Made by a program: the position numbers and the translations under genes
The notes under the pieces: model-generated
The model's database searches: none
The model's input: the letters and a program-made list of their open reading frames with translations, nothing else
Told to the model about the DNA's origin: nothing
Part shown: positions 1,594 to 45,584 of the stretch, in pieces
Layout of the letters: each line of letters begins with the position of its first letter
Position numbering within the stretch: the stretch's first letter is position 1
Virus record (IMG/VR): IMGVR_UViG_3300037245_003639
DNA length: 64,000 bases
Source: a virus
Strand: one strand, 5' to 3'

Positions 1594-2229
1594 ATGGCCA
1601 AAGCAACGAAATCAGAGTCACGACCCGTGCAGACAGGGATGCTTGAGTCCATTTTGCTCAAATCGGATTTTCGCTGCTTCAAAGCAGGCGATACGTTTAG
1701 CTTCAAACCTGGAGTGAATCTGCTCGTTGGCGATCAAGGCACTGGTAAATCAACAATCATCTATTTGATCCGCGATTTTGCATCAAAACGCCCCACAGAA
1801 CAAGCCATCGAAGTCGTCGGTGATGCGATTGCTATGATGTCATTCGATTTCGAGACAGAGTTGCCCCGCAACCAATCCTACCTGGAAGACAGTGGTACTC
1901 GATTATATACTCAGCTTGCCATGAAATGGTCATCGCATGGAGAATGTGTGCAAGCCTTGTTGATGGTTTTAGAAGAACCAGAGCGAATAGTCCTATTCAT
2001 GATGGACGAACCCGACATGGCTCTATCAGTTCGTTCTTGCCATCATCTTGTCAAGTCGATGAAGGAAGCCGTTAAGCGAGGCTGTCAAATAATTGCAGCA
2101 GTCCATAATCCAATAATCATTAGCAGTTTTTCGAATGTTCTGAGCATCGAACATAACCGGTGGATGTCCAGTGAGAAATTTCTGGAATCCCAGAAAAAAC
2201 CTTTGCGTAAACGTAGAAGGAAATCATAA
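1594..2229 (+). CDS. Stand-alone ABC/SMC-type P-loop ATPase (AAA_21-like)
   Basis: Walker A GDQGTGKST. SMC/ABC-signature-like SSHGECVQ. Walker B LFMMDEPDMAL. Confidence 0.55.
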   Translation: MAKATKSESRPVQTGMLESILLKSDFRCFKAGDTFSFKPGVNLLVGDQGTGKSTIIYLIRDFASKRPTEQAIEVVGDAIAMMSFDFETELPRNQSYLEDSGTRLYTQLAMKWSSHGECVQALLMVLEEPERIVLFMMDEPDMALSVRSCHHLVKSMKEAVKRGCQIIAAVHNPIIISSFSNVLSIEHNRWMSSEKFLESQKKPLRKRRRKS

Positions 2230-4010
2230 TGCGAATCGTATTAGCTCAAATCAATCCCACTCTCGGCGATCTGCGTGGCAACCTTGCTCTTATTCAGCAA
2301 GAAACCACCTACGCTGCTCAAGAGAAAGCCGATGTAGTGGTCTTCCCCGAGTTGGCAACCGTGGGCTACCCACCCCGAGACCTGCTGTACGACGAAAAGC
2401 TATGGAAGAGCCACGAAACTGTAATCTCCAAATTGCACGAGTTCGTAAAATCTTTGGCCAGAGAAATCACCGTTATCGTTGGAGGGTTGCATCAGGTTGA
2501 ATTGAGCCATGGGCGATTCGCCCGTTACAACGCAGCTTTCATCATCGACAAAAACAGGAGGATTAGAGTTGTTCACAAGCGGCTGCTACCCTGTTATGAT
2601 GTATTCGACGAGACCCGCTATTTCACGCCCGCAACAGACGGGCCTTACCCCATCAATGGAATGGAGCATGAGGTGAATGTCTTGATTTGCGAGGATATTT
2701 GGAACTTCGGATCTCAAGAGAAAGCATCATGGATGTCTCCCTACAGTTACGATGTCGATCCTGTCTCCCAACTCAAAGGCGATGGGCCAATCGTCGTTTT
2801 GAATGCATCTCCCTACTGGTGGAGCAAAATCCAGACCACCCGTGACTTGTTGCAAAGCATTGCTGACAAAACTGAGAGAGTGGTACTATGGTGCAATCAG
2901 GTCGGAGCCCATGACGATATTGTCTTTGGCGGCTACAGTATGGTCGTCAGTCCTCGTAGCATTTTCAATGTGGGCCTCCAGGAGTATCAAGGCACCATCG
3001 GAATGGCCGCGCCTTTCTCTGATGCTCGCCTGTTTGTGGACATTGGGGATAACGACGAAGTTCGCGTTATGGGTGGCCTGGATATGAATAAGCATGGCGG
3101 GCAGTATAACCCCGTCGTTAGAGTTGGTTCAGAACGCAAGGCTGTCGCCCCCGAAGATCTGGAAACATATTTCCTGTTCGCTGCTTTGCAATTGGGGCTG
3201 CGAGATTACTGCCGCCGAACTGGCTTCGAACGCATCGTCTTTGGAGCTTCCGGCGGCATCGATTCTGCTGTAGTTGGAGCCATTGCAGCTATCACCCTTG
3301 GGGGAGAAAACTGCACAGCCATTACGATGCCATCCCCCTACTCTACTTCCAGTAGCTGGGAAGATGCTTTGGCCTTGGCCGAGAACTGCAAGATGCGTTT
3401 CATGCGGCAAGATATCACGTCTGTCTATCAGGTATTGAAAGAAACTGTACTTGCCCATGGCAAGCAGAAATTTAAGAACCCCGTAACCGATGAAAATCTT
3501 CAACCACGAGCCCGAGCCATCCTGTTGATGGCGGAATCTAACGACAACGGTTCGTTACTGTTGACCACAGGCAACAAAAGTGAGCTTGCTGTCGGTTACT
3601 GCACCATCTATGGCGACATGTGCGGTGGCTATTCTTTGCTACCCGACGTTCCCAAGACCTGGGTTTTTGCATTGGCGAAGTTCATCAACAAGTATTTCGG
3701 GAATCTGATTCCTGAGAATACCATCACAAAGCCGCCATCTGCGGAATTGAAGCATGACCAGAAAGATACGGATTCGCTTCCCCCATATGACGTACTTGAC
3801 CCGGTCATCGACCAATTCATGCGTCATGTTCCCATTGAGACAATCAAAGAAAGCACCCTACTCCAGGATTCCGAGGTAGAGCGCATTGCTCACCTTATTA
3901 GGATTTCAGAACATAAGCGCTCACAAGCCCCTATCGGGCCGAAAGTTACTGAACGAGCGTTCGGCAGCGGACGGCGGATTCCCATCGCGAAGAAAGTCAC
4001 CTACGTCTGA
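2229..4010 (+). CDS. nadE: Glutamine-dependent NAD+ synthetase (N-terminal nitrilase/CN-hydrolase domain plus NAD synthetase domain)
   Basis: N-terminal CN-hydrolase (VVVFPELATVGYP, LICEDIW). C-terminal PP-loop FGASGGIDSAVV with downstream conserved TTGNKSELAVGYCTIYGD. Confidence 0.9.
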   Translation: MRIVLAQINPTLGDLRGNLALIQQETTYAAQEKADVVVFPELATVGYPPRDLLYDEKLWKSHETVISKLHEFVKSLAREITVIVGGLHQVELSHGRFARYNAAFIIDKNRRIRVVHKRLLPCYDVFDETRYFTPATDGPYPINGMEHEVNVLICEDIWNFGSQEKASWMSPYSYDVDPVSQLKGDGPIVVLNASPYWWSKIQTTRDLLQSIADKTERVVLWCNQVGAHDDIVFGGYSMVVSPRSIFNVGLQEYQGTIGMAAPFSDARLFVDIGDNDEVRVMGGLDMNKHGGQYNPVVRVGSERKAVAPEDLETYFLFAALQLGLRDYCRRTGFERIVFGASGGIDSAVVGAIAAITLGGENCTAITMPSPYSTSSSWEDALALAENCKMRFMRQDITSVYQVLKETVLAHGKQKFKNPVTDENLQPRARAILLMAESNDNGSLLLTTGNKSELAVGYCTIYGDMCGGYSLLPDVPKTWVFALAKFINKYFGNLIPENTITKPPSAELKHDQKDTDSLPPYDVLDPVIDQFMRHVPIETIKESTLLQDSEVERIAHLIRISEHKRSQAPIGPKVTERAFGSGRRIPIAKKVTYV

Positions 4011-4297
4011 GGAGTTCTCGTATGAGTCTCGATGATTCGTATTGCAGACTGGCAGATCTACAAGAGGCCCTGAAAGGTTCAGTCGAACCCCAGACGGCTA
4101 ATCTGCTGATGCAAATAGCCGAATTAGAAGATACTATTGCCTGCGAAGAACATGACGCAGAGATGGATGGAGATAAGGAATGAATCCAGCCACCGTTGGG
4201 TTTGCTCTGGTTTGTGGGCATAGTGGTGTTTGTGGCTTTATGGTCTGGTTTGGAATTCCCAAGATATGAGACAGACGGGAATGTCATTCGATAAAAA

Positions 4298-5317
4298 TTG
4301 GAGATACAAGTGCGAAAACAATCTTTGTCGCGAGGATTGACAGTATTCGCAGGAAGCAGTTCACAACAACTGGCAACCAAAATTGCCAAATATCTTGATA
4401 TCCCTTTGGGCCGGGCCGACTTGACGCCTCATCGCAACGGTGAGAGCATGGTGAAGATTGACGATAATGTGCGTGGTCGGGACGTGTTTGTCGTTCAGTC
4501 TGTTTGCCGTCAATGGCTTCCAGCTAATGGCAACCCTTATACTGGCGTCAACGACGCTCTTGTGGAACTCTTCGTCTGGATTGATGCATTAGCCCGCGCC
4601 TCAGCGTGGCGAATTACCGCAGTCATTCCTACCTTTGGGTATGCTCGCCAAGATCGCAAGGCTACAGGCCGAACTCCTATCTCCGCGAAAATGGTGGCAA
4701 CCTGCCTTGAAGAGTTGGGTTGCAATCGGGTTCTCACGATAGACTTGCATGCAGACCAGATTCAGGGGTTCTTTGGTTACAAAACCAAACTCGATTCATT
4801 AAATACCGGTGAAATCGTCTGTCAGCATTTTGCGGAACTCGGTCTTGAAAATGCTGTGGTCCTGTCCCCTGATGTCGGCAACTTAAAGAAAGCCGACAAG
4901 TATCGACAAGGAATGCCTGCCAACGTAGAAATCGCTGTCATTGATAAACGGCGGGCTGCGGATGGGACTATACAATCTGTGCAGTTGATTGGAGATGTCA
5001 AAGGCAAAAGCGTTCTCATGTTGGATGACATTATCTCGACTGCCGGGACTATGTGCAATGCAATGAAAATTGCCCTGGAGCATGGAGCGAAAGAGTTCTT
5101 CATTTGCGCAACACATGGGGAGTTCGTTGGTAACGCCATCCAAGAGTTGCAAGGATACCCCATTGAGTCCATTTGTATCACTGACGCAATACCACCCGTT
5201 CCAGAGATGGATGCCCTTCCTATCAAAGTCTTGTCAGTCGCGGAACTCTTTGGCGAAGCAATCTTGCGAATTCACAAAGATGAATCAATCACCGAACTAC
5301 TTGGAAAGTTTAACTGA
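4298..5317 (+). CDS. prs: Ribose-phosphate pyrophosphokinase (PRPP synthetase) family; alternatively an ADPR-pyrophosphate synthetase (Adps-like)
   Basis: LTVFAGSSSQQLATKIAKYLDIPLG start, DLHADQIQGFF, and PRPP-binding loop VLMLDDIISTAGTM. Confidence 0.85.
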   Translation: MEIQVRKQSLSRGLTVFAGSSSQQLATKIAKYLDIPLGRADLTPHRNGESMVKIDDNVRGRDVFVVQSVCRQWLPANGNPYTGVNDALVELFVWIDALARASAWRITAVIPTFGYARQDRKATGRTPISAKMVATCLEELGCNRVLTIDLHADQIQGFFGYKTKLDSLNTGEIVCQHFAELGLENAVVLSPDVGNLKKADKYRQGMPANVEIAVIDKRRAADGTIQSVQLIGDVKGKSVLMLDDIISTAGTMCNAMKIALEHGAKEFFICATHGEFVGNAIQELQGYPIESICITDAIPPVPEMDALPIKVLSVAELFGEAILRIHKDESITELLGKFN

Positions 5318-5386
5318 GCCTTATAAGAAAGGGATCAAGTTGTAGTGGGAAGCAAACTGCAAAGAAAGTATGATCCACACAAAGGC

Positions 5387-5415
5387 TTGACAATCCCAGA
5401 GCAACCATGTACACT
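5387..5415 (+). promoter_or_regulatory. Sigma70-like promoter TTGACAATCC-N-TACACT
   Basis: TTGACA at 5387-5392, 17-nt spacer, TACACT at 5410-5415. RBS GAGGAG then ATG at 5457. Confidence 0.5.
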
Positions 5416-5456
5416 GTGGTTTGATACGAAACCTGGAATTGATTGAGGAGTAAACC

Positions 5457-6146
5457 ATGACAAACCTGAAACGCAGAAGTGTATGGGCCGTTGCGCTCGC
5501 GATGTTCGCATTGTTTGCTATCCCGGATGCGGTAGCGCAACGTCGAGGCGGCGGATCTCGTTCCCGTTCAACCCCCCGCCGCTCGACCCCGTCGAAGCCC
5601 AGGACGAAGGCAGCTCCCAAGAAGACCGCGACAAAGAAGACCACCACGGCCACGAAGGAAAAGGCCGGCTATGGCAAGAAAAGCACCAAAGCTTCATCGT
5701 CCAAGGGCTCCAAGGCCGACAAGGCCCTCTATGAGAAGGCCAAGCGAAACGGCACCAGCTACAAGACCCGGGGCGAAGCCACGTCGGCTTTCAAAACGAA
5801 GATGGCGAACCAAAAGCGAGCTGACGGCAATCCCATGTATAGCAGCAAGTATGTGGCTCAGCCCGGCACTCGTCCTGGCCATATCCCGCAGACCTATGGC
5901 GGCAATACCATCATCTACAACCAGCAATACGGCGGCTACGGCCATATGGGTGTTGGAGGGTGGATGATGTATAACGCCATGGCCGACGCCACTATGATGA
6001 GCATGATGATGCGGAACCAAGGCTACCACTATGGCGCTGCGCCCCGTTACGGCCCAGGGGTGGGGCTAATCACCTTGACAGTCGTCTGCGGGATTATCGC
6101 TGTCGTTGCAGTTGGCGTGGTAATCACCAGGAAAAGCACAGCATGA
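5457..6146 (+). CDS. Secreted, membrane-anchored Lys/Thr-rich protein (signal peptide plus C-terminal TM)
   Basis: Signal peptide MTNLKRRSVWAVALAMFALFAIPDAVAQ. Lys/Thr/Ser-rich low-complexity region, Met/Gly-rich segment, C-terminal TM VGLITLTVVCGIIAVVAVGVVI. High-GC codon usage. Confidence 0.5.
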   Translation: MTNLKRRSVWAVALAMFALFAIPDAVAQRRGGGSRSRSTPRRSTPSKPRTKAAPKKTATKKTTTATKEKAGYGKKSTKASSSKGSKADKALYEKAKRNGTSYKTRGEATSAFKTKMANQKRADGNPMYSSKYVAQPGTRPGHIPQTYGGNTIIYNQQYGGYGHMGVGGWMMYNAMADATMMSMMMRNQGYHYGAAPRYGPGVGLITLTVVCGIIAVVAVGVVITRKSTA

Positions 6147-6922
6147 ACCTAAAAGACCCTGACTTCTGGCTCCAACTAAAGCCTCAGAGTGCCATCACGC
6201 TGAAAGACGAGAAGTCTTTGCTCAAAGACATGAGCGGCGTGGAAACCCTGGTTAAACGCATTATCAAGCTTCCTGAATGTGAGGGTCTCTGTACATGGTT
6301 GTTGCTGGAGCTTGAGGAAGCTACGGACAAAGCCACGCAATGGCTGATGGTCAAAATCGTGGGAGACGAAATCGACTTCCGCATCTACCATCTCCCCGCC
6401 AAGTTCGAACGTGGCAACCGCGATGATCTCGTTTTCGGTGGTGAAAACGAAGGCCACTGGGTTTTCCAAGAGCCCGAAGTCGAAGACGATGGTGAAGAGA
6501 TGACCCCGCAGGAAATCTTCGGGGATGACGAAGACGAGCAAACCTTCGAGGGTTCGGATGAAGAGCAGGGCATTATTCTTAACGATCTGGTCTATGCCGA
6601 CGAATTCGACTGGGATGGAGAGACTTATCGCAAGAAGGCCCAAGGCGACTTTGCCTGTGGTGACTTTGGTGTCTTTACTATAAAGGACGGCGACAGCGTA
6701 GGCATCGGCTCCCCTCCAATCGTGGAAACCCCGAAACCATCGGGTATCGACTATAACCAACTGGCTACGCTGGCCGAATACGTTGCGGACAGCGACAAGG
6801 CCAAAGAACCCGAAGCGGTGGTGTTTGAAATCGGAGATGCGGACGATGACAACGGCGGGCTCGTTAGCCTGATGATTGGTCATTCGCTCGCTGTAACTGA
6901 CCTGGATATACTCGCAAAGTAA
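6143..6922 (+). CDS. Hypothetical acidic protein
   Basis: ATGA overlap with the upstream stop. Asp/Glu-rich. The antisense 309-aa ORF is rejected. Confidence 0.5.
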   Translation: MNLKDPDFWLQLKPQSAITLKDEKSLLKDMSGVETLVKRIIKLPECEGLCTWLLLELEEATDKATQWLMVKIVGDEIDFRIYHLPAKFERGNRDDLVFGGENEGHWVFQEPEVEDDGEEMTPQEIFGDDEDEQTFEGSDEEQGIILNDLVYADEFDWDGETYRKKAQGDFACGDFGVFTIKDGDSVGIGSPPIVETPKPSGIDYNQLATLAEYVADSDKAKEPEAVVFEIGDADDDNGGLVSLMIGHSLAVTDLDILAK

Positions 6923-6935
6923 GGGAGAACAACGA

Positions 6936-7397
6936 ATGGACGCAACAGCGGAAGCGACAAAAATCGGCACGCTTGATGAATTGCAAGCGGCCTTGTCAGA
7001 ACTCGGGTATGAATGCAACCGAGTGGACATGGATGGAGATGGCACCCCAGAGCCGTTGCTGACTGCGGTCATCAACGTGGATGACAAGTCGTACTCCATC
7101 GTCATCTCGCAAGAAGAGCATCATTTCCTGGTGGACTGCGAGTTCTGCCAACTCAAGGATTTGTCCGACGACAACGCTGAGAAGATGACGGCTCAATTGT
7201 TGGCCGTTTTGGCTCTGAACCATGACATCGCCCCATTCGCGTTTGCCGTCGTGGACAGCGGACTCGACGGCATCGATCCAACAGATCCGATTGTCCTCGT
7301 TCACCGCCTGCCGATTGGCGATCTGAGCGTGGAGGAAGTAAATCAGGCATTCGCATCGCTACGGCAAGGCATCAACGCTGCTGTGGTGTCGATTTAG
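6936..7397 (+). CDS. Hypothetical protein
   Basis: RBS GGGAGAA 8 nt upstream. Acidic. Confidence 0.45.
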   Translation: MDATAEATKIGTLDELQAALSELGYECNRVDMDGDGTPEPLLTAVINVDDKSYSIVISQEEHHFLVDCEFCQLKDLSDDNAEKMTAQLLAVLALNHDIAPFAFAVVDSGLDGIDPTDPIVLVHRLPIGDLSVEEVNQAFASLRQGINAAVVSI

Positions 7398-7423
7398 GCC
7401 AAAAGCCAGAGAGGAGATAAATC

Positions 7424-8098
7424 ATGAGCATTTGGAATAACGTCAAAAACATGTTCCGCGAGAAAGCGGAAAAGATAGAAGCCGCAACGGCTGACCATGT
7501 GCGAGACGGCAAATTCGCCATCAAAGACGCCGAGGCGGAAGAGATCAGATTCCGTGCGAGCGTCCGCGATGTAGTGGCGGATCTCAAACAGATGGAAACC
7601 CGACTCACCACGATACAGGCCGACCGCAAGAAGTACGACGGTCTGGCCAAGAAGTTCGCAGCAGCGGTGGAAGATGGTGACAAAGACCAGATGACAAATC
7701 TGGAAACTGCCGCCGGTAAAGTCGATGCGCTCGACGCTGAGATCACCGCTACAAAGAAATCGCTCGATGGGCTGCGGAACAGTCGGCAGCAGTTGCAGGT
7801 TGAACTCGATAAGGTCCGCAATAAAATTGCCAGGGCGAAGCAGACCTACTCGGTCAATGCGGCTCGCATCAAAGCGGCCAAGATCAAAGATACGCTCAAC
7901 CAATCCAAAGCGAGAGTGGCAGCGGGCGTCTCGGGCTTAGGTGCTCTGGACGATATGTCCGCTGCGGCAGACCGCATGGAAGCCGAGGCCGAAGCAACCG
8001 AAGAACTTGCCGGTCCGGCGGCTGATATTGAGAGCTTGGAGGAAGCCGCTGACGCCATTGGCGGAAGCAGTGCGGCTGACAGATACCTCAAGGGATAG
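7424..8098 (+). CDS. pspA: PspA/IM30 (phage-shock protein A / Vipp1) family protein
   Basis: Start MSIWNNVKNMFREKAEKIEAATADHVRDG..IKDAEAEEIR, then a long heptad coiled coil with the same architecture as PspA ([25 protein letters not shown]...). RBS GAGGAG. Confidence 0.6.
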   Translation: MSIWNNVKNMFREKAEKIEAATADHVRDGKFAIKDAEAEEIRFRASVRDVVADLKQMETRLTTIQADRKKYDGLAKKFAAAVEDGDKDQMTNLETAAGKVDALDAEITATKKSLDGLRNSRQQLQVELDKVRNKIARAKQTYSVNAARIKAAKIKDTLNQSKARVAAGVSGLGALDDMSAAADRMEAEAEATEELAGPAADIESLEEAADAIGGSSAADRYLKG

Positions 8099-8123
8099 CC
8101 CTCCTTTTTCTGCACCATGCCCC

Positions 8124-8160
8124 GAGCGGCGAGCCCGTCAAACGGCTCGTCGCTTTTTTA
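8124..8160 (+). terminator. Rho-independent terminator
   Basis: Imperfect GC-rich stem AGCGGCGAGCCCG/CGGCUCGUCGC followed by UUUUUUA. Immediately followed by a promoter. Confidence 0.45.
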
Positions 8161-8189
8161 TTGACAATCTCGTGTCTTTCTGATAAAGT
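8161..8189 (+). promoter_or_regulatory. Sigma70-like promoter TTGACAATCT-N-TAAAGT
   Basis: TTGACA at 8161-8166, 17-nt spacer, TAAAGT at 8184-8189. GGAGG RBS and ATG at 8206. Confidence 0.5.
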
Positions 8190-8205
8190 GACCACGGAGG
8201 TTGTT

Positions 8206-9297
8206 ATGAGATACTGGCTTTTGACATTGCTACTGGTCCCAGGTGCTTTCGCCCAAGAGCCACCTAATCCCCCGATTGAACAGGGCTCCGAGAACTACAT
8301 CCGCGTGGACTGTGCCAACTTCCCGCAGATAGTCAACAAGGATTCCGCCAACTACACCGGGTTTCTTATTGACGTTTGGGAAGCTGTGGCTTTACGGCAG
8401 GACTGGCAATTCATCTACCACGAAGCCCCCAGAACAACTGAACCGGGAGCCGATCACTACGACGCTCCCTTCAAGAGACTGGAAACAGGAGAAGCGGATA
8501 TCCTGCTTGCAGCTTGCACAAAAACCGCGGCGAGAGAAGAAAGGATTGACTTCTCTGATCAATACTATCGCTCTGGTTTACGCATCGTCACCAACAAACA
8601 GGAGGCCCCATGGTATCTTTTCCTGACGGGCTTCCTCTCACCGAGTATTATCAAAGCATTCGTTATTCTGACCTGTCTGCTTACCGTGGGCGGGTTCTTC
8701 ATGTGGATATTCGATCGCCGACATGCCGACAGCGAGGTCAAGACTTTTGAACTCGGATGCCAATTGGCCTTCGAGACTGGCTCCACCATTGGGCATGGTT
8801 TCCTGCACCCTAAAAGTCGCGGAGCCAGATGGACGGGCTATCTCATATTCCTTACGGGTTGCATCTGTTTCAGCAACCTTATCTCCGAGATGACTGCGGA
8901 GAAGACCCTGGACCGCATGGATGGGGCCATTACAGGCCCGTCAGACCTCGCTGGCAAGACTGTAGCGACCGTGGCAGGGACAACTGCCTCCGACACTTTG
9001 GATAAACTGGGAGCAATCGTCCCCCAATGTGCAAAACTTGGCGATGCATTGCTCAAACTACTCATCGGTGAGGCCGATGCCGTAGTCTACGACTGGCCAG
9101 CCCTGGCTTACTACCTGAATGAAACGTCCGCAGGAGAACGTTGTGAAGCGGTCGGGCCATTGTTTGACATTCAATACTATGGGGTAGCTTTCCCCGAGGG
9201 TTCTCCTCTCCGCGAACAGTTTAACGTTGGACTCAACCTTCTACGAGAATCCGGTGAATACGAACAAATTTACAAGAAATGGTTTCCCAAAAGCTAG
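8206..9297 (+). CDS. GluR0-like ligand-gated ion channel: periplasmic binding-protein lobes S1/S2 interrupted by M1-pore loop-M2
   Basis: Signal peptide MRYWLLTLLLVPGAFAQ. PBP type-3 lobe 1 (RIDFSDQYYRSGLRIV). TM1 IIKAFVILTCLLTVGGFFMWIF. Re-entrant segment ELGCQLAFETGSTIGHGF, resembling a K-channel pore helix plus TxGYG filter. TM2 YLIFLTGCICFSNLISEMTA. PBP lobe 2 (GKTVATVAGTTASDTL...AVVYDWPALAYY). Confidence 0.6.
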   Translation: MRYWLLTLLLVPGAFAQEPPNPPIEQGSENYIRVDCANFPQIVNKDSANYTGFLIDVWEAVALRQDWQFIYHEAPRTTEPGADHYDAPFKRLETGEADILLAACTKTAAREERIDFSDQYYRSGLRIVTNKQEAPWYLFLTGFLSPSIIKAFVILTCLLTVGGFFMWIFDRRHADSEVKTFELGCQLAFETGSTIGHGFLHPKSRGARWTGYLIFLTGCICFSNLISEMTAEKTLDRMDGAITGPSDLAGKTVATVAGTTASDTLDKLGAIVPQCAKLGDALLKLLIGEADAVVYDWPALAYYLNETSAGERCEAVGPLFDIQYYGVAFPEGSPLREQFNVGLNLLRESGEYEQIYKKWFPKS

Positions 9298-9315
9298 CAA
9301 ATTCAACGAATCTGT

Positions 9316-9344
9316 TTGACAGACGCTGTGGCATTTGGTAGATT
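9316..9344 (+). promoter_or_regulatory. Sigma70-like promoter TTGACA-N-TAGATT
   Basis: TTGACA at 9316-9321, 17-nt spacer, TAGATT at 9339-9344. Confidence 0.45.
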
Positions 9345-9388
9345 ACCGACGAGCAACACGATCAAAGTCCTATGAACATGGAGATGAG

Positions 9389-10366
9389 ATGCTCACACTT
9401 ATCGTCCTGGCGCAAGCCACGATTGTGAATTTCGTCGCAGCCGACGCAACCGACGCGATTCAGAAGGCTATCAACTCGGGGGCGTCCGAGATTATCATCC
9501 CTTACGTCGGCCAGGATTGGATTGTTCGCCCGCTCACGCTGGCGAGCAATCAGACGATCCGACTCGAACCGGGCGTGGCTGTGGTCGCCAAGAAAGGCCA
9601 TTTCCAAGGAAATAACGACTGTCTCATTCGAGGGAACCGCGTCACCAACGTAACCATCCAGGGCTATGGCGCCGTTCTGCGCATGCGCAAGGCCGACTAC
9701 CAGGACAGGAAGAAGTATGCCCCCGCAGAATGGCGGCACGGTATCTCGCTCCGGGGCTGCCGTGACATTAAGATTCTCGGCGTGCGAGTCGAGAGCACCG
9801 GCGGGGACGGCATCTACGTTGGTCCACAGTTGAAGACCTGGATACCTTGCAAGAATATCCTCATTCAGGACGTTGTCTGTGACGACAATCTTCGGCAGGG
9901 ATTGAGCATCACGTCGGTTCGCAACCTTCTGGTCGATAACTGCGTTTTCAGCAATACGTCCGGCGGCAGACCCGGGGCGGGGCTCGACATCGAGCCTAAT
10001 GTCGTGTGGGACCACGTCTGTAACATCGTGGTGCGCAACTCACAGAGCGTCGGTAATGAGGGGGCGGGTTGGTTTGTAAACCTATCTCGGTTGGGCAAGG
10101 CATCGTCCTATGTCGATATCCGGTTTGAAAATTGTTTTGTGCAGCGGTGTGGAGATGCCGGGTCGTTGCGGCTCAAATCAATCGATAGTGACAGCCCGCG
10201 TGGTATCGTAGAATTCATCGATTGTGTATTCGAGGATCCCCGGTATGCGTATTGGAAACAGTCGCCATTATTGATTCGGTTCGAGAACTGCAAATGGAAG
10301 ATCGGGCGCGATGTGCTGCATATTCAGCGATGGCAAGGGCAGTCACTCATGGAGCCGAAGGAGTAA
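9389..10366 (+). CDS. Secreted right-handed parallel beta-helix protein (pectate-lyase-fold; putative glycan depolymerase / tail-spike-like)
   Basis: In-frame ATG at 9389 with GGAG RBS. Signal-like MLTLIVLAQATIVNFVAADA. Beta-helix repeats (CLIRGNRVTNVTIQGYGAVL; ESTGGDGIYVGP; DDNLRQGLSITSVRNLLVDNCVFSN). GC-rich relative to surroundings. Confidence 0.6.
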   Translation: MLTLIVLAQATIVNFVAADATDAIQKAINSGASEIIIPYVGQDWIVRPLTLASNQTIRLEPGVAVVAKKGHFQGNNDCLIRGNRVTNVTIQGYGAVLRMRKADYQDRKKYAPAEWRHGISLRGCRDIKILGVRVESTGGDGIYVGPQLKTWIPCKNILIQDVVCDDNLRQGLSITSVRNLLVDNCVFSNTSGGRPGAGLDIEPNVVWDHVCNIVVRNSQSVGNEGAGWFVNLSRLGKASSYVDIRFENCFVQRCGDAGSLRLKSIDSDSPRGIVEFIDCVFEDPRYAYWKQSPLLIRFENCKWKIGRDVLHIQRWQGQSLMEPKE

Positions 10367-10368
10367 TG

Positions 10369-11244
10369 AACATGTCAGCAATAAATGAATTCGACATTGC
10401 CTTCATCATTGATACAACTGCCAGCATGGGCCGGTTCATTCATGACGCCCGCCGTGAGATGCAAAAAACCCTAAAGGCCCTGGCTGATGTTCAGGACGTA
10501 AGTATGCGGGTCGGGATTGTGGAATACCGAGACCACCCGCCCGAAGATCGTAGTTTCGTAACCACATTTCATCAATTCTCAGACGACTTGAATGCGACCC
10601 AGAGAATTATCGAACGCCTCGATCCATCCGGTGGAGGAGATGCCCCCGAAGCCGTTCTGGATGGAATCGTAGCCGCCTGCAAAAAACTCGAATGGAGAGA
10701 ACATGCTCGTCGCATTGCTGTTCTGATCGGAGATGCCCCTCCCCATGGCTACGCTGGTCCGTCTGATAGATGGTCGAGTGGTTGCCCTTGCAAAGAGACC
10801 CTGGAGACCGTTACAGCATTAGCAGAAGAAACCTGCATTCGCCTGTTCTCTATTCCGCTATATGTAGACCCGTATCTGACAAAAGCATTCAAACAACTGG
10901 CTTTACTCACAGGTGGAGGAATGTTCCCCGCCCAAAACGGTGGAGCCATGCAAGAAATCCGCAAAATTGTGGAAGAAGAGTTCGGAAAACTGCCTTTCGA
11001 TATAAAGGTCCATGATGCATGGCATGAAGTCTCAGGTGAAATCAGCGCCACCCAATTAGCTGAAAGGTTCAGTGTTAGCCTCGATGATGTATATGAATCG
11101 TTAGGACGTTTGGGCAGTCGTAATCTGCTGGACGTTCAGGCTCATCACACTCCCAAAGGCATTGAGAGATTTTTGACGCCGCAGGAGATTGAAGGTGCCC
11201 GAGAAGCCTTCGAAAAGGGCACGACCGGGGTCGTCGAAAGCTGA
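10369..11244 (+). CDS. von Willebrand factor A (vWA) domain protein with C-terminal helical domain
   Basis: MIDAS-type start DIAFIIDTTASMG and VGIVEYRDH, DAPEAV, IAVLIGDAPPHG. RBS AAGGAG. Confidence 0.65.
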   Translation, partial: NMSAINEFDIAFIIDTTASMGRFIHDARREMQKTLKALADVQDVSMRVGIVEYRDHPPEDRSFVTTFHQFSDDLNATQRIIERLDPSGGGDAPEAVLDGIVAACKKLEWREHARRIAVLIGDAPPHGYAGPSDRWSSGCPCKETLETVTALAEETCIRLFSIPLYVDPYLTKAFKQLALLTGGGMFPAQNGGAMQEIRKIVEEEFGKLPFDIKVHDAWHEVSGEISATQLAERFSVSLDDVYESLGRLGSRNLLDVQAHHTPKGIERFLTPQEIEGAREAFEKGTTGVVES

Positions 11245-11275
11245 TCTTCGCCTTCGTCGTTTCTGGTACGGGAAC

Positions 11276-11313
11276 CTGCCCGGCGGTGACAGCCGGGAAA
11301 GACCGGCGTTTTG
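11276..11313 (+). terminator. Possible terminator hairpins
   Basis: CCCGGC/GCCGGG 6-bp stem, then GCCGG/CCGGC stem followed by GUUUUG. Weak. Confidence 0.3.
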
Positions 11314-11325
11314 CTTAAGGAAACC

Positions 11326-11354
11326 TTGACAATCTCCGCTCCATCCGCTATTCT
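11326..11354 (+). promoter_or_regulatory. Sigma70-like promoter TTGACAATCT-N-TATTCT
   Basis: TTGACA at 11326-11331, 17-nt spacer, TATTCT at 11349-11354. Confidence 0.5.
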
Positions 11355-11380
11355 ACACGTATGACATGGAGGCTTGGCGG

Positions 11381-12577
11381 ATGATCATAAGGTCTTTACT
11401 CGATACAGATCTTTATAAACTGACAATGCAACAGGCCATCCTGTTCGGACGGTTTGCTGGCGTTCATTTCCAGTCAGTGCCCGTCCGTTACAAGTTTATC
11501 AACCGCAATCGCACGCCTTTCCCCGCTGGCTTTGACAGGATGCTACAAGCAGAGATTGAAAGCCTTGCTCGTCTCCAATTGGTCGAAAGGGAAAGGGAGT
11601 TCCTGACCAGTCGGCGTTTTCTCAAACCCGGCTATATCGACTTCTTTAGCGGTTATCGCTACAACCCTGAGGAAGTCACAGTTACGCAAGACTCAGATGG
11701 ACAACTGCATGTCACGGTTGAAGGCCCGTGGTACCGAACAGTCATGTGGGAAGTTCCACTGCTTGCTATAATCAGCGAACTATACTTCCAGTCTCAAAAC
11801 ATAACCGTTTCACTGCCATCCGTTCGTGATTCTGCGGCAGCAAAAGCAATGCGATTGGTACAGGCGGGTTGTTTCTTTGCAGACTTTGGGACTCGACGAC
11901 GATATTCGAGGGAAGTCCATGAACACGTTGTAGAAGGTCTCAAGTTCTGTCCTAATCCGCACAGCCATTTCTCTTATCGTCGAGGAAATCTTACCGGAGC
12001 CAGCAACGTTTGGCTGGCTATGCGTAACAATATCACTCCCATCGGCACTCACGCCCACGAGTGGTTTCAGGCAATTGCGGCGTTATTTGGCTACCGCCAA
12101 GCTAACCGTTTTGCTCTGGAAGCGTGGGCCGAAGAATACGGCGGTGATCTAGGAATCGCCTTGAGCGATACTTTCACCACTGATGTGTTCTTCCACGACT
12201 TTCGAGCAGATATGGCCAAGCTCTGGGATGGAGTCCGACATGACAGCGGAGATCCCCTCGTTTTTGCCCAGAAGACCATAGATCATTACCAGAGTTTGCA
12301 CATTGATCCGCTTTCGAAGACAATCGTCTTTAGTGACGGCCTCAACGTGGACAAAGCCATTGAATTGAATGAGTGGTGCAAGGGTAAAATAAAATGTGCA
12401 TTTGGCATTGGCACCCACTTTAGTAATGACGTAGGCGCCACACCGCTGAACATCGTTATGAAGATGACCCGTTGCAATGGAATGCCGGCTGTTAAGCTCT
12501 CTGACGTAGACGGGAAGAATACTGGCGATGCCGACGCCATCGAGTCGTGCAAATTTCAACTAGGACTGAACGCATGA
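11381..12577 (+). CDS. pncB: Nicotinate phosphoribosyltransferase family (NAPRTase); alternatively a Namat-like enzyme
   Basis: Hallmark N-terminus IRSLLDTDLYKLTMQQA. GGAGG RBS 8 nt upstream of ATG 11381 (the track ORF starts at 11366, in frame). 400-aa length typical of PncB. Confidence 0.85.
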   Translation: MIIRSLLDTDLYKLTMQQAILFGRFAGVHFQSVPVRYKFINRNRTPFPAGFDRMLQAEIESLARLQLVEREREFLTSRRFLKPGYIDFFSGYRYNPEEVTVTQDSDGQLHVTVEGPWYRTVMWEVPLLAIISELYFQSQNITVSLPSVRDSAAAKAMRLVQAGCFFADFGTRRRYSREVHEHVVEGLKFCPNPHSHFSYRRGNLTGASNVWLAMRNNITPIGTHAHEWFQAIAALFGYRQANRFALEAWAEEYGGDLGIALSDTFTTDVFFHDFRADMAKLWDGVRHDSGDPLVFAQKTIDHYQSLHIDPLSKTIVFSDGLNVDKAIELNEWCKGKIKCAFGIGTHFSNDVGATPLNIVMKMTRCNGMPAVKLSDVDGKNTGDADAIESCKFQLGLNA

Positions 12578-12855
12578 GCAACAATCAGGCAATAATCGTA
12601 AAAAGACGCCGAGCGCAAACATTCTTTCAAACTGCAACTTCGGCGGGTCGGTCAACGCCTGCGCATCATCTCTATCAGTCGGTCCAGCAGCTTGGCCAAA
12701 TGATTGTAGAGGTTGAGGAACTCGGGCGACTAAGGCCAGAATGGCTTGGCAGAACTACTGCTATTGCTCGTTTATTGCGGCAAGCCAAGAAGCTATTAGA
12801 AACCCAGAATCGAGTTATCGAGATGGTAGTCGATCGCATGGACTCATCAAAATGA
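12574..12855 (+). CDS. Hypothetical protein
   Basis: ATGA overlap with the pncB stop. Basic N-terminus. Confidence 0.35.
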   Translation: MSNNQAIIVKRRRAQTFFQTATSAGRSTPAHHLYQSVQQLGQMIVEVEELGRLRPEWLGRTTAIARLLRQAKKLLETQNRVIEMVVDRMDSSK

Positions 12856-13259
12856 AATATCGCTTAGGTCTATCTTGTCTATTGCTCGGTTTCGTAGAGC
12901 TTGCAGCCATCTTCGGCTGGGTCTATATGGTCCGCAACTATGACTGGACCAACCCGGTTCCGCAGCCCCTTACGGAAACCAGCACCTTTGTCTTCATGGG
13001 CTCGATTTTGACCATCGTCTCCCCATTTGCTTTCATCATCATTGGCTCCATATTCCTGGAGGCCGGGAATTACAAACTGCTCAATCGAAAACGAGAAGGG
13101 CTCTGCTGGAAGTGTGGGAAAAATCTCAAAAAGCATGGACAGTGGGTTCCAGATAAAGTTATCTGTCAATGCGGTCATGAACATAATATCAAAGTCATCA
13201 CTTTATACTCGGAGATTAGGGAACGGCAACGGCAACTAAGAGAGCTTGACGATGGCTAA
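12852..13259 (+). CDS. Hypothetical membrane protein with C-terminal CxxC..CxC zinc ribbon
   Basis: ATGA overlap. Two TM helices. CWKCGKN...CQCGHEH. Confidence 0.4.
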   Translation: MKYRLGLSCLLLGFVELAAIFGWVYMVRNYDWTNPVPQPLTETSTFVFMGSILTIVSPFAFIIIGSIFLEAGNYKLLNRKREGLCWKCGKNLKKHGQWVPDKVICQCGHEHNIKVITLYSEIRERQRQLRELDDG

Positions 13260-15117: not shown

Positions 15118-15690
15118 ATGGACGCATTGAATATTGGGATATTGGTGGTTGGCATTTGTGCAGGGATTGGCGCTCTGATACTCAAACTCAAGTCACGTAA
15201 ACCTGACCAAACGCTACCCATCAGCCCCCAAGCCACCGCTCCTCCGCAGGCGGCCACCAGAACAAGAAAAGATGTTCCCATCCGTCACCGACGCCGAGCT
15301 AATTCAACAGGTAAGATTGCGCCCGCCGGTTATTACTGGAACGAGACGGATGAACTCTTCGACTTGGATGGCTGGTTGATTGAAGGAATAATACTTCTTG
15401 AAATGCTCGACAGTATGAGCGTGGTTCCACTCGACGGAATCGCAGCTTCCAATGAACAATATGCTCAGGAAATCGATGCTACTCCTGATATTCCCGCAGC
15501 AGAGGTTGAACATGTAACAGAGAGTATCGCAAGCCCTCCTCCCGCGCCTGTGCATCACGAACCTGTTACTCCTGAGCCCGAGCGAAGTAGCTGGGGCGGA
15601 GGCGGAAGCGGAGGCGGAAGCGGAAGCGGAAGCGGAAGCTACGATTCAGGTGGAAGCGACTCTGGCGATTGCGGTGGAGGAGATGATTAA
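15118..15690 (+). CDS. Membrane protein with Gly/Ser-rich C-terminal tail
   Basis: N-terminal TM LNIGILVVGICAGIGALIL. C-terminal GGGSGGGSGSGSGSYDSGGSDSGDCGGGDD encoded by a (GGAAGC/GGAGGC)n repeat. Confidence 0.4.
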   Translation: MDALNIGILVVGICAGIGALILKLKSRKPDQTLPISPQATAPPQAATRTRKDVPIRHRRRANSTGKIAPAGYYWNETDELFDLDGWLIEGIILLEMLDSMSVVPLDGIAASNEQYAQEIDATPDIPAAEVEHVTESIASPPPAPVHHEPVTPEPERSSWGGGGSGGGSGSGSGSYDSGGSDSGDCGGGDD

Positions 15691-16048: not shown

Positions 16049-18937
<2,889 letters not shown>

Positions 18938-24774: not shown

Positions 24775-25242
24775 ATGGCTGGCAGCATCACGGTTTTGTG
24801 CGGACTCTCATGCTCAGGAAAATCCACTTGGGTCCGAAAAAACGGCTGGAGTTACGTGGTTCTTTGCCCCGACGAATTCCGCCGGATACTCCATGGACAT
24901 GATTTTTATGGGGCGGCTGAAGAATTCGTTTGGGGCAGTGTGAAAACTGCGGCCCGAGTCCTTGCAGGACCACAGAAACGTGATATACTGATTGATGCTA
25001 CGGCTATCACAGTTGGACAGCGTGGCCAGTGGGTTCGGATTGCCAAAGAGATTGGTGTCCCAATCATCTGTTTCGTTTTTGATGTTCCGCTCGAAGTTTG
25101 CCTCGAACGGAATCAGGCACGCAAACGAAAAGTGCCAGATGATGTCTTAAATAGGCAAGCGGACCTTTTTGAGTTCCCCACGGAGGACGAAGGCTTCGCT
25201 TCTGTGAGGAAGGTTGAAAGTGAAGACAAATCGTCTAATTGA
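24775..25242 (+). CDS. P-loop kinase, T4 polynucleotide-kinase (Pnk) kinase-domain-like
   Basis: ITVLCGLSCSGKSTWVRK parallels T4 Pnk IILTIGCPGSGKSTWARE. 155 aa, kinase domain only. Confidence 0.55.
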   Translation: MAGSITVLCGLSCSGKSTWVRKNGWSYVVLCPDEFRRILHGHDFYGAAEEFVWGSVKTAARVLAGPQKRDILIDATAITVGQRGQWVRIAKEIGVPIICFVFDVPLEVCLERNQARKRKVPDDVLNRQADLFEFPTEDEGFASVRKVESEDKSSN

Positions 25243-26095
25243 ATCAGACTGTGATCACGAAATTCTCACTGCCGATGAAGAAACGCAACTAGCCGAGACG
25301 ATTCAGGAAGCCGCAAAATCTTATGACCTTCTCATTACGAGCCGGATAACTCTCAATGAATATGAGAAACTCCAGACCAGTGCTCGCATTGCCCGAGACA
25401 CACTTGTATCTCAAAATCGTCGGCTAGTCGCTAGCCTTGCCACTCATTATCATCCTCGTCCTCCGCTTAGCATCGATGATTTGATTAGTGAAGGCAACTT
25501 AGCCCTTCTTGCCGCCATACAGCGTTTCAAACCTAGCCAAGGGCGTTTCACTACCTATGCTGGCTATGACATCAACCAGGCCATGGTTCGTTTTCTTAGC
25601 TCACAAACGTCAATGATTTCCGTTCCTGCTTACCTGATTGAGGATTTCGCCGAAGTGCGCAGTGCCATCAGGGAGTTGAAAACTCAGCTTGAACGAGATC
25701 CCACTGTTTCCGAAATAGCGAAATACACTGGAAAAGTTGAGAAACGTATTAGAACTATTCTAGCGGCAATCCAATGTCGCTATGCTCACGTTGCTTCCTT
25801 AGATACTTCTATGAATGAAAATGAGCGACCCATTGCCATTGAAGACTTCAAAGCTGTATTGCCATTGGATCGAATCGCCGAGAAAACCAGAGACAAAGCT
25901 ATATTCAAACATCTGAAATCAACTTTGAACCCGCGAGAGTTTCGGGTTATCAAACTATATTTCGGCTTCGGCCAGGATAGATCGCGAACTTTGCAGGAAG
26001 TGGGGGATATCCTAGGACTAACCCGAGAAAGGATTCGTCAGATAATCAACGAATCTAAAGTAAAAGTTCACACAGTTCTCAGCAAAGAGTTATAA
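25214..26095 (+). CDS. RNA polymerase sigma-70 family factor
   Basis: Region 2 LISEGNLALLAAIQRFKPSQGRFTTYAGYDINQAMVRFL. Region 4 HTH RTLQEVGDILGLTRERIRQI. Confidence 0.8.
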   Translation: MKVKTNRLIESDCDHEILTADEETQLAETIQEAAKSYDLLITSRITLNEYEKLQTSARIARDTLVSQNRRLVASLATHYHPRPPLSIDDLISEGNLALLAAIQRFKPSQGRFTTYAGYDINQAMVRFLSSQTSMISVPAYLIEDFAEVRSAIRELKTQLERDPTVSEIAKYTGKVEKRIRTILAAIQCRYAHVASLDTSMNENERPIAIEDFKAVLPLDRIAEKTRDKAIFKHLKSTLNPREFRVIKLYFGFGQDRSRTLQEVGDILGLTRERIRQIINESKVKVHTVLSKEL

Positions 26096-42642: not shown

Positions 42643-44394
42643 TTACCATGACGACGGAACGTCAGTTTCTTCAATAACATCAGGATAATCAGATTCCATA
42701 AAATCAACATCAAACTGATGACCATTATACGTTAATACCCAAGTCCTCTGATCCTCTCCTTTTGCATCGGGATGTGACTTGCGTATTAGCTCAATCGGTC
42801 TGCGCCATGTCTTGTAAATATACTTCACGACGTATTCAGCATATGACAAGTCTAGGTTAACAGGGTCAGAACGCGAATGCTCTAAACGGAGCAAACCTGT
42901 TTCATCTACTCGTCTCACTACTATCTCGGGAACTCCATAATTATTGCGTGACCATGCAAAACCACGGATAATATCTTTCAGTTCCTTCGATTGGACGATT
43001 ACAGTTTTATTTTCGATATACTGTTCGTCTATTGCATGAGAACCCAAGTCGTCTTTCTCGGATTCTTTGAATCTCTCTTTGATTTTCTCTTGGATTCCAT
43101 AGTCATCTTTATACTTATCAGTGCTCCCATACATAAAAAGATGCAACTCATGGGCCAAGTCTTCGGTAAGGTAGTTCCTCATGAAAGAGACATCATCCTC
43201 TTCCATCATAACTTCACGAATCTTTTGGGCTCCATCGATGGTGACTGGAATTTTGCGATCCCATTCGTCCTCTCGATACCCTTGTTCGTAATACTCATCC
43301 CACCGCTTCTTGATATCCCGAAATATCCTGAATCCCATGTAATACGGATTCAAACGTGTAATTGAAGAAAAAGAATTGGGATTTTCCCTAACCAACCGAC
43401 TCCACACTTTCACTTTCTTACCTGTTGGACGGCCCATTTGATCAGTTTCTTCAACCTCTTCTTTCAGATGAGCTTTGGCTCCGGGCTGAACAACCTTTTC
43501 GTGCTGTGTGAGAAAGTCCAAATGCTCTTCGTCTGTCATGGGATATTTTATGTCCGTTACTCCGTAATCATTATCGTTCCCAAGAGCATACTGATCCATC
43601 AACTCTTTGTGCCAGTAAGAGGCCCAACCTTCATTCATAATTTTAGTGCGAAACATAGGATAGAAGTAATAAGCTTCTCTCCTTACCATTTCAAAGATCT
43701 TTTGTTGCCAAGGTTCCATGCTCGCATATTCTGACATAAACCATAGCAAATCACGTTCAGGTCTCGGGGGGATATGAATTCCCTCAATAACCTTTTGAAT
43801 GAGAGGGGCTTTATCGTTGATATGAACTATATCTTCATGAAGTTTTACTTCACGCTCTTTATAGACAGCTCGACGAGCAGCATATCTTTTTCGGCGCCTG
43901 CCCTTGAATATATCAATGTGGTGCTCTAAAGCAAGGGCGACATCCAGCCACTCATCTATAACATCGTCCCCATAGTCGTCTCTAAACTGTTCAATGATTA
44001 CAGCGTGGCGCTTAGCCACATTTACCATCTGCGTTTCATCAATTTTCTGAAACATAGAGTTGTTCTTAAAAAAATCGCTATGTGCATAACAGTGGGCTGC
44101 AATAAAAAGATTAGTGGTGTTGGTATTGTTCTTATCCAAAAACGCAAGAGAGGGGTCGTTATCCAGAATCAACTCATAGATTCTGGAGAAGCCCATCTCA
44201 CCTTGAGCCTTTTGGTACTGATATATCCGACCAAAACTCCAATGAGAATAACGAGTCGGAAGACCATAACTGGCTGTCTGCCAAATTACCGGCGCAGGAA
44301 CCTCAAAGAAGTGGACATCAAAAGGATCCAGCTTAGCTGCCAATGCCAGCCGTTCAATTTCAGCGAATCTTTCCTTCAATAGTTCAGTAGACAC
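42643..44394 (-). CDS. spoVR: SpoVR/YcgB family protein
   Basis: GLPTRYSHWSFGRIY...FIAAHCYAHSDFFKNN matches the SpoVR consensus. Confidence 0.85.
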   Translation of the reverse strand: MSTELLKERFAEIERLALAAKLDPFDVHFFEVPAPVIWQTASYGLPTRYSHWSFGRIYQYQKAQGEMGFSRIYELILDNDPSLAFLDKNNTNTTNLFIAAHCYAHSDFFKNNSMFQKIDETQMVNVAKRHAVIIEQFRDDYGDDVIDEWLDVALALEHHIDIFKGRRRKRYAARRAVYKEREVKLHEDIVHINDKAPLIQKVIEGIHIPPRPERDLLWFMSEYASMEPWQQKIFEMVRREAYYFYPMFRTKIMNEGWASYWHKELMDQYALGNDNDYGVTDIKYPMTDEEHLDFLTQHEKVVQPGAKAHLKEEVEETDQMGRPTGKKVKVWSRLVRENPNSFSSITRLNPYYMGFRIFRDIKKRWDEYYEQGYREDEWDRKIPVTIDGAQKIREVMMEEDDVSFMRNYLTEDLAHELHLFMYGSTDKYKDDYGIQEKIKERFKESEKDDLGSHAIDEQYIENKTVIVQSKELKDIIRGFAWSRNNYGVPEIVVRRVDETGLLRLEHSRSDPVNLDLSYAEYVVKYIYKTWRRPIELIRKSHPDAKGEDQRTWVLTYNGHQFDVDFMESDYPDVIEETDVPSSW

Positions 44395-44403
44395 AGCAAA
44401 TCC

Positions 44404-45576: not shown

Positions 45577-45584
45577 AATTCGCC

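Follow-up and report, generated by a model that had tools for sequence, protein, structure and literature searches.

A virus-derived stretch of DNA of 64,000 nucleotides (IMG/VR record IMGVR_UViG_3300037245_003639, hereafter the window) carries a gene for a GluR0-like protein at 8206–9297 on its plus strand. The protein sequence and its relatives argue that this is a genuine GluR0-type channel gene of a huge phage, and it is from them that we infer conduction. The explanation that we favour, and consider likely, is that the gene encodes one subunit of an amino-acid-gated P-loop cation channel of the GluR0 type which resides in the inner membrane of the host. The original prediction, made from the letters of the window, had read this open reading frame (ORF) as a phage-encoded ligand-gated channel in which the two halves of a binding domain enclose a potassium-channel-like pore. 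This outline has held up in the analysis reported here.

The reading frame is exact as predicted. It opens with ATG, encodes 363 amino acids plus a stop and is preceded, 6 nt ahead of the start, by the ribosome-binding site GGAGG (8195–8199, plus strand, read from the sequence). The ORF is not a chance one, because an exhaustive profile search returned 530 relatives at E<1e-30 and because the five closest relatives have the pore loop (nearly) unchanged.

Along the chain, the segments follow the order S1-M1-P-M2-S2, all encoded on the plus strand. By inspection, the N-terminus, MRYWLLTLLLVPGAFA followed by QE, looks like a putative signal peptide (residues 1–16, 8206–8253) with an AxA cleavage motif. 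Next comes S1, the N-terminal portion of the predicted periplasmic ligand-binding domain (LBD), which spans residues 30–135 (8293–8610), includes T105 and R110 and was delimited by Pfam and by alignment to glutamine-binding protein (GlnBP). A pre-M1 helix (136–143) and the transmembrane (TM) helix M1 (146–170) occupy 8611–8715, as placed by an AlphaFold2 (AF2) model, by hydropathy and by alignment to TM1 of KcsA. The pore helix (181–192) and the filter loop (193–202) are encoded at 8746–8811 and were located by AF2 and by the KcsA alignment. Within this loop the filter itself, T194-I195-G196-H197-G198 (8785–8799), is aligned with T75-V76-G77-Y78-G79 of KcsA. The inner helix M2 covers residues 205–240 (8818–8925; AF2 and KcsA alignment). 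Lastly, S2 forms the second part of the LBD (residues 241–363, 8926–9294) and contributes T259/T260 and D296, as seen in alignments with GlnBP and with homologues. The chain has neither an amino-terminal domain (ATD) nor an M4 segment and ends 3 residues past the last helix of S2.

Domain searches support this layout. Pfam detects SBP_bac_3 at 5.3e-21 as a single domain over residues 38–361, split by a membrane insert of 105 amino acids. Furthermore, Lig_chan-Glu_bd covers residues 45–132 at 1.8e-7, above its gathering score. Hydropathy reveals two hydrophobic segments, at about 136–171 and 209–231, separated by a polar loop of 40 residues in which residues 182–199 read ELGCQLAFETGSTIGHGF. The AF2 model, a monomer computed from an alignment of 120 homologues, is confident (pLDDT 88.5, pTM 0.73), with low pLDDT at residues 1–30. 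It places the pre-M1 helix, M1, the pore helix and M2 at the boundaries given above and an extended loop at 193–204. Pfam, AF2 and Foldseek thus all describe split halves of a solute-binding protein which flank two TM helices and a re-entrant P-loop.

Comparison with known structures leads to the same picture. In a Foldseek search of the PDB, almost all of the top 50 matches are AMPA-receptor chains comprising the LBD and the TM domain, at E ~1e-21 to 1e-19 and over ~365–372 columns. In a PDB sequence search, full-length AMPA and kainate receptors align contiguously to residues 85–360, with the membrane part included. When the TM core (residues 136–240) is searched alone, KcsA provides the best PDB matches (E 5.5e-4). 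These four lines, namely the PDB search, the TM core alone, the AF2 model and Foldseek, agree on a channel-type protein. The re-entrant loop is present and the best full-length homologues are of the channel type.

The insert aligns with KcsA without a gap for 75 residues, a stretch that runs from TM1 across pore helix and filter into TM2. The alignment pairs E190 with E71, TIGHG with TVGYG, F199 with D80, P202 with P83, Q186/L187 with W67/W68, and G218 with the hinge glycine G99. The AF2 model and this alignment both show a pore helix, then a filter, between two TM helices, with G218 as the glycine hinge of the inner helix; G218 is invariant across the subfamily alignment. In addition, TIGHG aligns column for column with the TTVGYGD of ~80 bacterial GluR0-like proteins, and bacterial relatives with TTVGYGD do pass the Ion_trans_2 profile. 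The expected substitution of His for Tyr in a potassium-channel-like filter is therefore seen in both alignments. The usual K-channel signature is T-x-G-[Y/F]-G, generally followed by Asp; the sequence here is T-I-G-H-G-F, which departs from it and keeps the Thr and both Gly.

Most of the 530 relatives carry T[TS]VGYGD, and about 30 of 120 bacterial relatives lack the filter motif altogether. Four relatives, at 65–71% identity, all carry STIGHGF. The window protein belongs to a phage-associated subfamily with a short turret, defined by a loop of KcsA length and by the pattern Q/S-L-A-x-x-x-x-S-T-I-G-x-G. A word-indexed search with a profile of this subfamily missed most of its members and added P0268 alone. 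Within the subfamily the aromatic position of the filter varies between Y, F, W, H and S. The filter is GYG in P0122, P0125 and P0268, GFG in P0121 and P0162, GWG in P0136 and GSG in P0140, and it is GHG in the window clade and in P0151.

A Glu at the position equivalent to KcsA E71 is limited to the two GHG lineages, and the other short-turret members have A, T, M or Y at this position. Neighbour-joining places the GFG protein P0121 as the sister of the window clade (bootstrap 91), and P0151 branches elsewhere with weak support. The sequences thus suggest that the Glu/His pair arose twice, in two non-sister lineages, which would fit a physical coupling of the two residues behind the filter. 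Sister phage lineages keep a canonical GYG or GFG filter, and the channel of contig L004 passes Ion_trans_2 at 3.6e-12.

The pore is under purifying selection. The segment Q186–G206 hardly varies among the five closest relatives, at an overall identity of ~70%. No other part of the protein is as conserved as this pore loop of 21 residues, which has an amino acid identity of 0.68–0.91 against ~0.65 elsewhere. Synonymous sites are saturated (proportion of synonymous differences, pS, 0.7–0.8), and the nonsynonymous proportion, pN, is 0.17–0.25 in every region including the TM domain. At the level of the coding sequences, this agrees with a function that is being maintained and not with a pore in decay.

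The ligand-binding lobes are closest to glutamine-binding protein in the PDB sequence search (2.6e-27), which also returns the LBDs of GluR0 proteins (slr1257, 1ii5, 5e-13; Nostoc, 2pyy, 5e-23). The site for the alpha-amino-acid moiety is formed by T105, R110, T259/T260 and D296, which correspond to T70, R75, T118/G119 and D157 of GlnBP. R110 and D296 do not vary among the tabulated homologues; exceptions at T105 and T259/T260, also conserved, are few. The residues that read the side chain in GlnBP are changed, K115 to V256 and H156 to Y295. Since the backbone-binding residues are kept but the side-chain readers differ, the candidate ligand is probably some L-amino acid. The GlnH equivalog is the best NCBIfam match and reaches 121.5 bits against a cut-off of 303, in line with the earlier view that the protein is not a binding protein of an ATP-binding cassette (ABC) transporter.

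Two pairs of cysteines are found in the putative periplasmic lobes. C36 (8311–8313) and C104 (8515–8517) flank two residues of the ligand site, D35 and T105. They form a pair that only the window clade has; most relatives have V or I instead. Of the second pair, C275 (9028–9030) is invariant in the clade and C313 (9142–9144) is present in four of five members, with Leu in P0004. Both pairs may form disulfides that shape the binding pocket.

The assignment to a phage, also part of the original prediction, is supported by the gene content of the window, by a contig of 403 kb on record from which an identical channel protein is known, and by a syntenic IMG/VR contig of 461 kb. The genes of the window include those for a clamp loader, a type IA topoisomerase, a dCMP deaminase, a dNMP kinase and an NAD synthetase. 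Capsid, portal and terminase genes were not identified within the 64 kb, and the assignment therefore rests on gene content and on relatives; on these grounds, the window looks like a huge phage. A link to the 'Jug' gut phages was considered, but the paper on them reports just a pspA-like gene beside terD and has no channel. The GC-rich sub-region that had been noted around the gene is real but mild, with a GC content of 0.52–0.55 over 5–10 kb against 0.42–0.47 over 22–58 kb.

Other genes of the window deserve mention. A collagen triple-helix-repeat protein of 962 amino acids (16049–18937, minus strand) matches many tail-fibre PHROGs and is the only clearly structural gene product seen in the window. 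An RNA polymerase sigma factor is encoded at 25214–26095 on the plus strand (phrog_351, 1.6e-49), which implies that transcription moves away from host-type promoters at a later stage of the infection. On the minus strand, a trio of genes at 42643–47648 encodes PrkA (AAA and kinase C-terminal domain), a DUF444 (YeaH-like) protein and a SpoVR-like protein, all strongly matched in PHROG and Pfam. This PrkA has its nearest phage relatives in Thermus phages and in uncultured phages of 595–642 kb. ARAGORN also reports a tRNA-Ile of 89 nt with the unusual anticodon AAT at 15358–15446 (plus strand); it lies within the ORF 15118–15690 and may be spurious.

A full-length homologue of the channel was not found in 50,697 GenBank phage records. 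There, tblastn of the protein gave just two short matches confined to S2, both in ordinary binding proteins, and megablast of positions 4000–13000 gave no match. In IMG/VR, three viral contigs, one of them of 461 kb, carry GluR0-like genes, all with canonical GYG or GFG filters. The structural database BFVD contains one full-length match, E3T502 of Cafeteria roenbergensis virus; in addition, giant viruses and a few phages contribute partial matches to the pore in the form of bare K-channel pores. In the literature searched, nothing was found on GluR0-like proteins of phages.

The gene neighbourhood is conserved. At least eight phage contigs carry the channel gene after an operon of four genes, orf229-orf259-orf153-pspA, of which the third is CesT/YjfI-like. 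In the window all of these genes are on the plus strand. The first gene, orf229 (5457–6146), has homologues in related contigs and encodes a conserved secreted or membrane protein with a signal peptide, a basic low-complexity stretch rich in Ser, Gly and Lys, a block rich in Gly, Tyr and Met, and a C-terminal TM helix. It is followed by orf259 (6143–6922), which encodes a conserved acidic protein of unassigned fold with homologues in contigs L003, L007, L010, L012 and L004. For both proteins, no meaningful Pfam match was obtained even at lenient E-values. The small protein orf153 (6936–7397) is CesT/Tir-YbjN-DUF2170-like and forms a dyad with the PspA/IM30-family membrane-repair protein at 7424–8098. 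The latter gene, directly upstream of the channel gene, had been recognised from the start, and its product matches PspA_IM30 at 1.2e-10, above threshold (41.8 bits against 33.9).

The pspA gene precedes the channel gene in every related contig that is long enough to show it, namely L003, L007, L009, L010/L011, L012, L013 and the distant L004 of 461 kb. In the syntenic contigs the identity of the channel to that of the window goes down to 32–38%. Directly downstream of the channel gene, most related phages have a gene for a VWA-domain protein, found in the window at 10366–11244 on the plus strand (Pfam VWA_4 and VWA). Here, a gene for a right-handed beta-helix protein (about 9389–10366, plus strand), with its own promoter at 9316, stands between the two. 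It is absent from this position in L003, L008, L009 and L010 and seems to have been inserted into the module recently. The surroundings also form an island of NAD synthesis and salvage genes: NadE (2229–4010), phosphoribosyl pyrophosphate synthetase (Prs, about 4310–5317) and nicotinate phosphoribosyltransferase (NAPRT, 11366–12577). The module of PspA and channel is bracketed by NadE-Prs on one side and NAPRT on the other, and likewise in L003, L010 and L012, at 48–86% identity.

With a CesT/Tir-superfamily gene directly upstream of a PspA/IM30-family gene, the module shows the arrangement of the CesT/Tir-PspA dyad. The fold of orf153 is that of CesT/DUF2170; we claim this fold and the arrangement, not orthology. 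In hhalign comparisons, the families of orf153 and orf259 showed no similarity to YjfI and YjfK of E. coli (probability <1%), and the phage PspA is weakly similar to YjfJ (E 0.006). The module is thus not claimed as an orthologue of yjfIJK. PADLOC returned just coiled-coil noise on PspA, and the module is thus not a known defence system.

The transcriptional layout sets the channel gene apart. A sigma-70-type promoter, TTGACA-N17-TAAAGT with a TG element, lies directly upstream of it at 8161–8189 (plus strand). A promoter of the same class (5387–5415, plus strand) precedes orf229 and with it the operon of four genes which ends with pspA. After pspA, a hairpin resembling an intrinsic terminator, with 12 pairs of which 8 are G-C and a T-run, closes this operon at 8124–8155 on the plus strand. 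The channel gene is therefore a monocistronic unit which shares its promoter class with the PspA operon.

The pattern TTGACA-N17-TAnnnT, also designated the TTGACAATCT-class, has seven occurrences in the window, where 0.52 would be expected; in 100 shuffles the count always stayed below seven. Six of the sites are on the plus strand (5387, 8161, 9316, 11326, 15057 and 18981), each just upstream of the start of a same-strand ORF, and the one at 9316 lies after the channel gene. The seventh, at 62293, is on the minus strand. Four of the copies extend to TTGACAATC. The orthologues in L003, L007 and L010 keep the promoter of the channel gene in front of them. The host sigma-70 holoenzyme probably reads it, and the whole set probably represents promoters for the host RNA polymerase, used early by the phage.

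From these elements a working scheme for the phage channel can be proposed. The signal peptide would direct S1 into the periplasm. M1, the pore helix and filter, which would enter the membrane from the cytoplasmic side, and M2 would then bring the chain back to the periplasm, where S2 would complete a GlnH-like clamshell that holds an amino acid by Arg, Thr and Asp. By analogy with GluR0 and the ionotropic glutamate receptors (iGluRs), four subunits would form the pore, with the filter facing the cytoplasm. Binding of a periplasmic L-amino acid would close the clamshell and pull the M2 bundle open, and the backbone carbonyls of the filter would conduct K+ or a similar monovalent cation. Behind the filter, the pair of His197 and Glu190 would replace the network of Tyr, Asp and Trp and may tune stability, selectivity or a pH sensitivity at the cytoplasmic face. 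The genomic context suggests that the channel and the operon of the CesT-like protein and PspA could act as a membrane-homeostasis module, which would keep the K+ content, the turgor and the membrane potential of the host usable through the long infection by a huge phage.

Several observations weigh against this scheme. The filter positions that are critical in KcsA are changed (Y78 to H, D80 to F and W67/W68 to Q/L), and such a sequence does not permit one to take K+ selectivity, or even conduction, for granted. The profiles point the same way. Of the two matches anticipated in the original prediction, SBP_bac_3 was obtained but Lig_chan fell short of its gathering score (E 0.0028, 17.9 bits against 30.8); the same is true for Ion_trans_2 (E 0.0014, 18.9 bits against 22.5), both over residues 154–260, and conduction is therefore not proven. 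Homology as such is supported by the KcsA alignment and by the relatives that exceed the Ion_trans_2 cut-off. In the AF2 model the pLDDT falls to 73 at residues 191–200, and the underlying alignment is dominated by canonical GYG homologues. The literature searched yielded no functional data on a GHG filter or on mutants of the Y78H type. The only mention of a GHG filter found there is a variant of a tobacco TPK channel (PMC8619664), and a GHG-type variant of a GluR0-like channel is not described in it. Furthermore, a frameshift splits the channel copy of L009 (429–1443) and puts residues 32–95 and 89–362 out of frame with each other, be it through an assembly error or because the copy is a pseudogene. 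Lastly, the proposed physiological role is read from the gene neighbourhood.

An alternative that we think unlikely accepts conduction and gives up selectivity for K+: a non-selective cation channel, or a proton-permeable and pH-sensitive one, would depolarise the host. Such a channel could possibly serve superinfection exclusion, the shutdown of host transport or the timing of a holin trigger by external amino acids. The rewired filter network would agree with this, and the free variation of the aromatic position (Y, F, W, H and S) suggests relaxed or altered needs for selectivity. However, selectivity comes from the backbone carbonyls, and the Thr, both Gly and the filter length are intact in a gapless match to KcsA. 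The presence of Glu and His together in two non-sister lineages, moreover, looks like compensation that keeps the filter working. Chlorovirus Kcv channels depolarise their host at entry, a precedent that we count for this alternative. PspA responds to a loss of proton-motive force and would fit a membrane stress inflicted by the phage itself; holin or lysis genes, by contrast, were not seen adjoining the module.

A degenerated pore is likewise unlikely. In this case the protein would be a membrane-anchored periplasmic sensor or binding protein for amino acids which conducts no ions and which might signal to PspA or to the VWA protein by a conformational change. A decaying pore would not remain invariant, yet the pore loop is the most conserved region of the protein and the Thr and both Gly of T-I-G-x-G as well as the hinge Gly are kept. 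This outweighs, in our view, the loss of the canonical Tyr, Asp and Trp of the filter network and the sub-threshold matches to the ion-channel profiles. The relatives speak on both sides: the bacterial proteins without a filter motif show that loss of the K+ filter occurs in this family, whereas the sister phage lineages retain GYG or GFG and one of them, L004, passes Ion_trans_2 outright.

A bolder extension of the favoured channel scheme is quite improbable. It holds that huge phages carry a cassette for the management of membrane voltage, in which the channel would read periplasmic amino acids and set the membrane potential of the host. The His/Glu filter would add sensitivity to the cytoplasmic pH or an altered selectivity, CesT-PspA would buffer the membrane, and the output would set productivity or the timing of holin-mediated lysis. 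If this were true, the amino acids could signal how well nutrients are supplied or that neighbouring cells are lysing, and the cassette would be a viral receptor-operated electrical switch in a bacterium.

Very improbable, finally, is an ordinary membrane-tethered ABC solute-binding protein or a bacterial gene on a wrongly assigned, non-phage contig: the source annotations read 'polar amino acid transport system substrate-binding protein', GlnH leads the NCBIfam matches and no capsid, portal or terminase gene was identified, but the GlnH score is far below its cut-off, a KcsA-like module of 105 amino acids splits the domain, no ABC permease or ATPase genes are found near the channel gene, the collagen-like tail-fibre gene, clamp loader, sigma factor, dCMP deaminase and PHROG-matching PrkA/DUF444/SpoVR genes are present, PrkA has its matches in very large uncultured phages and the module is syntenic with a viral contig.

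Ligand-gated channels are not a recognised part of phage biology. The conservation under selection of a cassette of channel, PspA and CesT-like protein across divergent huge phages points to phages that actively control the K+, turgor and membrane potential of their hosts. Beyond phage biology, the short-turret subfamily offers a natural mutational series at the aromatic position of the filter. The phage protein, with its 363 amino acids, is a compact system in which to study the part that the network behind the filter plays in selectivity and inactivation, and a minimal model for the coupling of a glutamate-receptor clamshell to a pore.

Among known systems, the first to be compared is GluR0 of Synechocystis (slr1257), which was reportedly described by Chen et al. 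in 1999. The phage channel shares with GluR0, a 'Group 1' protein (Ger et al. 2010, PMC2950845; Zhang et al. 2026, PMC13099474), the S1-M1-P-M2-S2 layout, the lack of an ATD and of M4, a GlnH-like LBD with Arg, Thr and Asp, and a pore of the K-channel type; a periplasmic position of the LBD and an inverted orientation of the pore, as in GluR0, are predicted for it. GluR0 restores the growth of E. coli deficient in K+ uptake, its inverted topology has been shown experimentally, and it affects cell-volume responses (PMC13099474). In contrast to GluR0, the phage filter reads TIGHGF and not TVGYGD, the turret is four residues shorter and thus of KcsA length, and before the filter stands Glu, which KcsA also has, in place of Val or Thr. 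The phage channel is at most 38% identical to the closest GluR0-like proteins found outside the phage clade, and it is encoded by phages at a fixed place beside a PspA operon.

KcsA, the pH-gated channel of Streptomyces lividans, is matched at E71, T75, G77, G79, P83 and the hinge G99. The two differ at Y78, D80 and W67/W68, as listed above, and in membrane orientation, which is predicted to be opposite. Furthermore, gating by an extracellular clamshell is proposed for the phage channel in place of the cytoplasmic pH sensor. The LBD and TM domain of AMPA and kainate receptors provide the best structural match to the whole chain (E ~1e-21, ~370 columns, TM-score ~0.6). Identity to them is just 18–20%, and the phage channel lacks the ATD, M4 and a gate of the SYTANLAAF type; it has a filter of the K-channel type and no pore with a Q/R site. 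GlnH, or glutamine-binding protein (1wdn, 8hnj), is the closest relative of the lobes and shares the backbone-binding residues. In the phage protein, however, the domain is split by a channel module, the residues that select the side chain differ and the score remains below the equivalog cut-off.

Virus-encoded P-loop pores are also known from the viral K+ channels, such as chlorovirus Kcv and its relatives, and from phage proteins with a 'potassium channel domain'. The natural viral K+ channels are bare pores of ~80–130 amino acids without an LBD, whereas the phage gene described here encodes a complete ligand-gated architecture. That a clamshell can gate a viral pore is illustrated by GluATCV*, a synthetic chimera of an LBD and Kcv (PMC6385376, PMC12332018). 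E3T502 of Cafeteria roenbergensis virus has an iGluR-like fold too (E 1.2e-22, 360 columns, 24% identity). In contrast to the phage protein, it belongs to a eukaryotic giant virus, is 514 amino acids long and is annotated as a 'putative ABC-type amino acid transporter'; it may itself be an unrecognised viral iGluR-like channel.

Lastly, bacterial CesT/Tir-PspA dyad operons of the yjfIJ type have been described, some of them with a K+ channel that senses intracellular ligands (Ravi et al. 2024, PMC11237479). The phage module likewise places a CesT-fold gene directly before a PspA-family gene and has a K-channel-type gene in the neighbourhood. Its partners orf229, orf259 and the VWA protein are not recognisable as the DUF350, DUF1190 and DUF2491 proteins of the dyad operons. 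In contrast to the K+ channel of those operons, the phage channel is of the GluR0 type and is predicted to respond to a periplasmic ligand.

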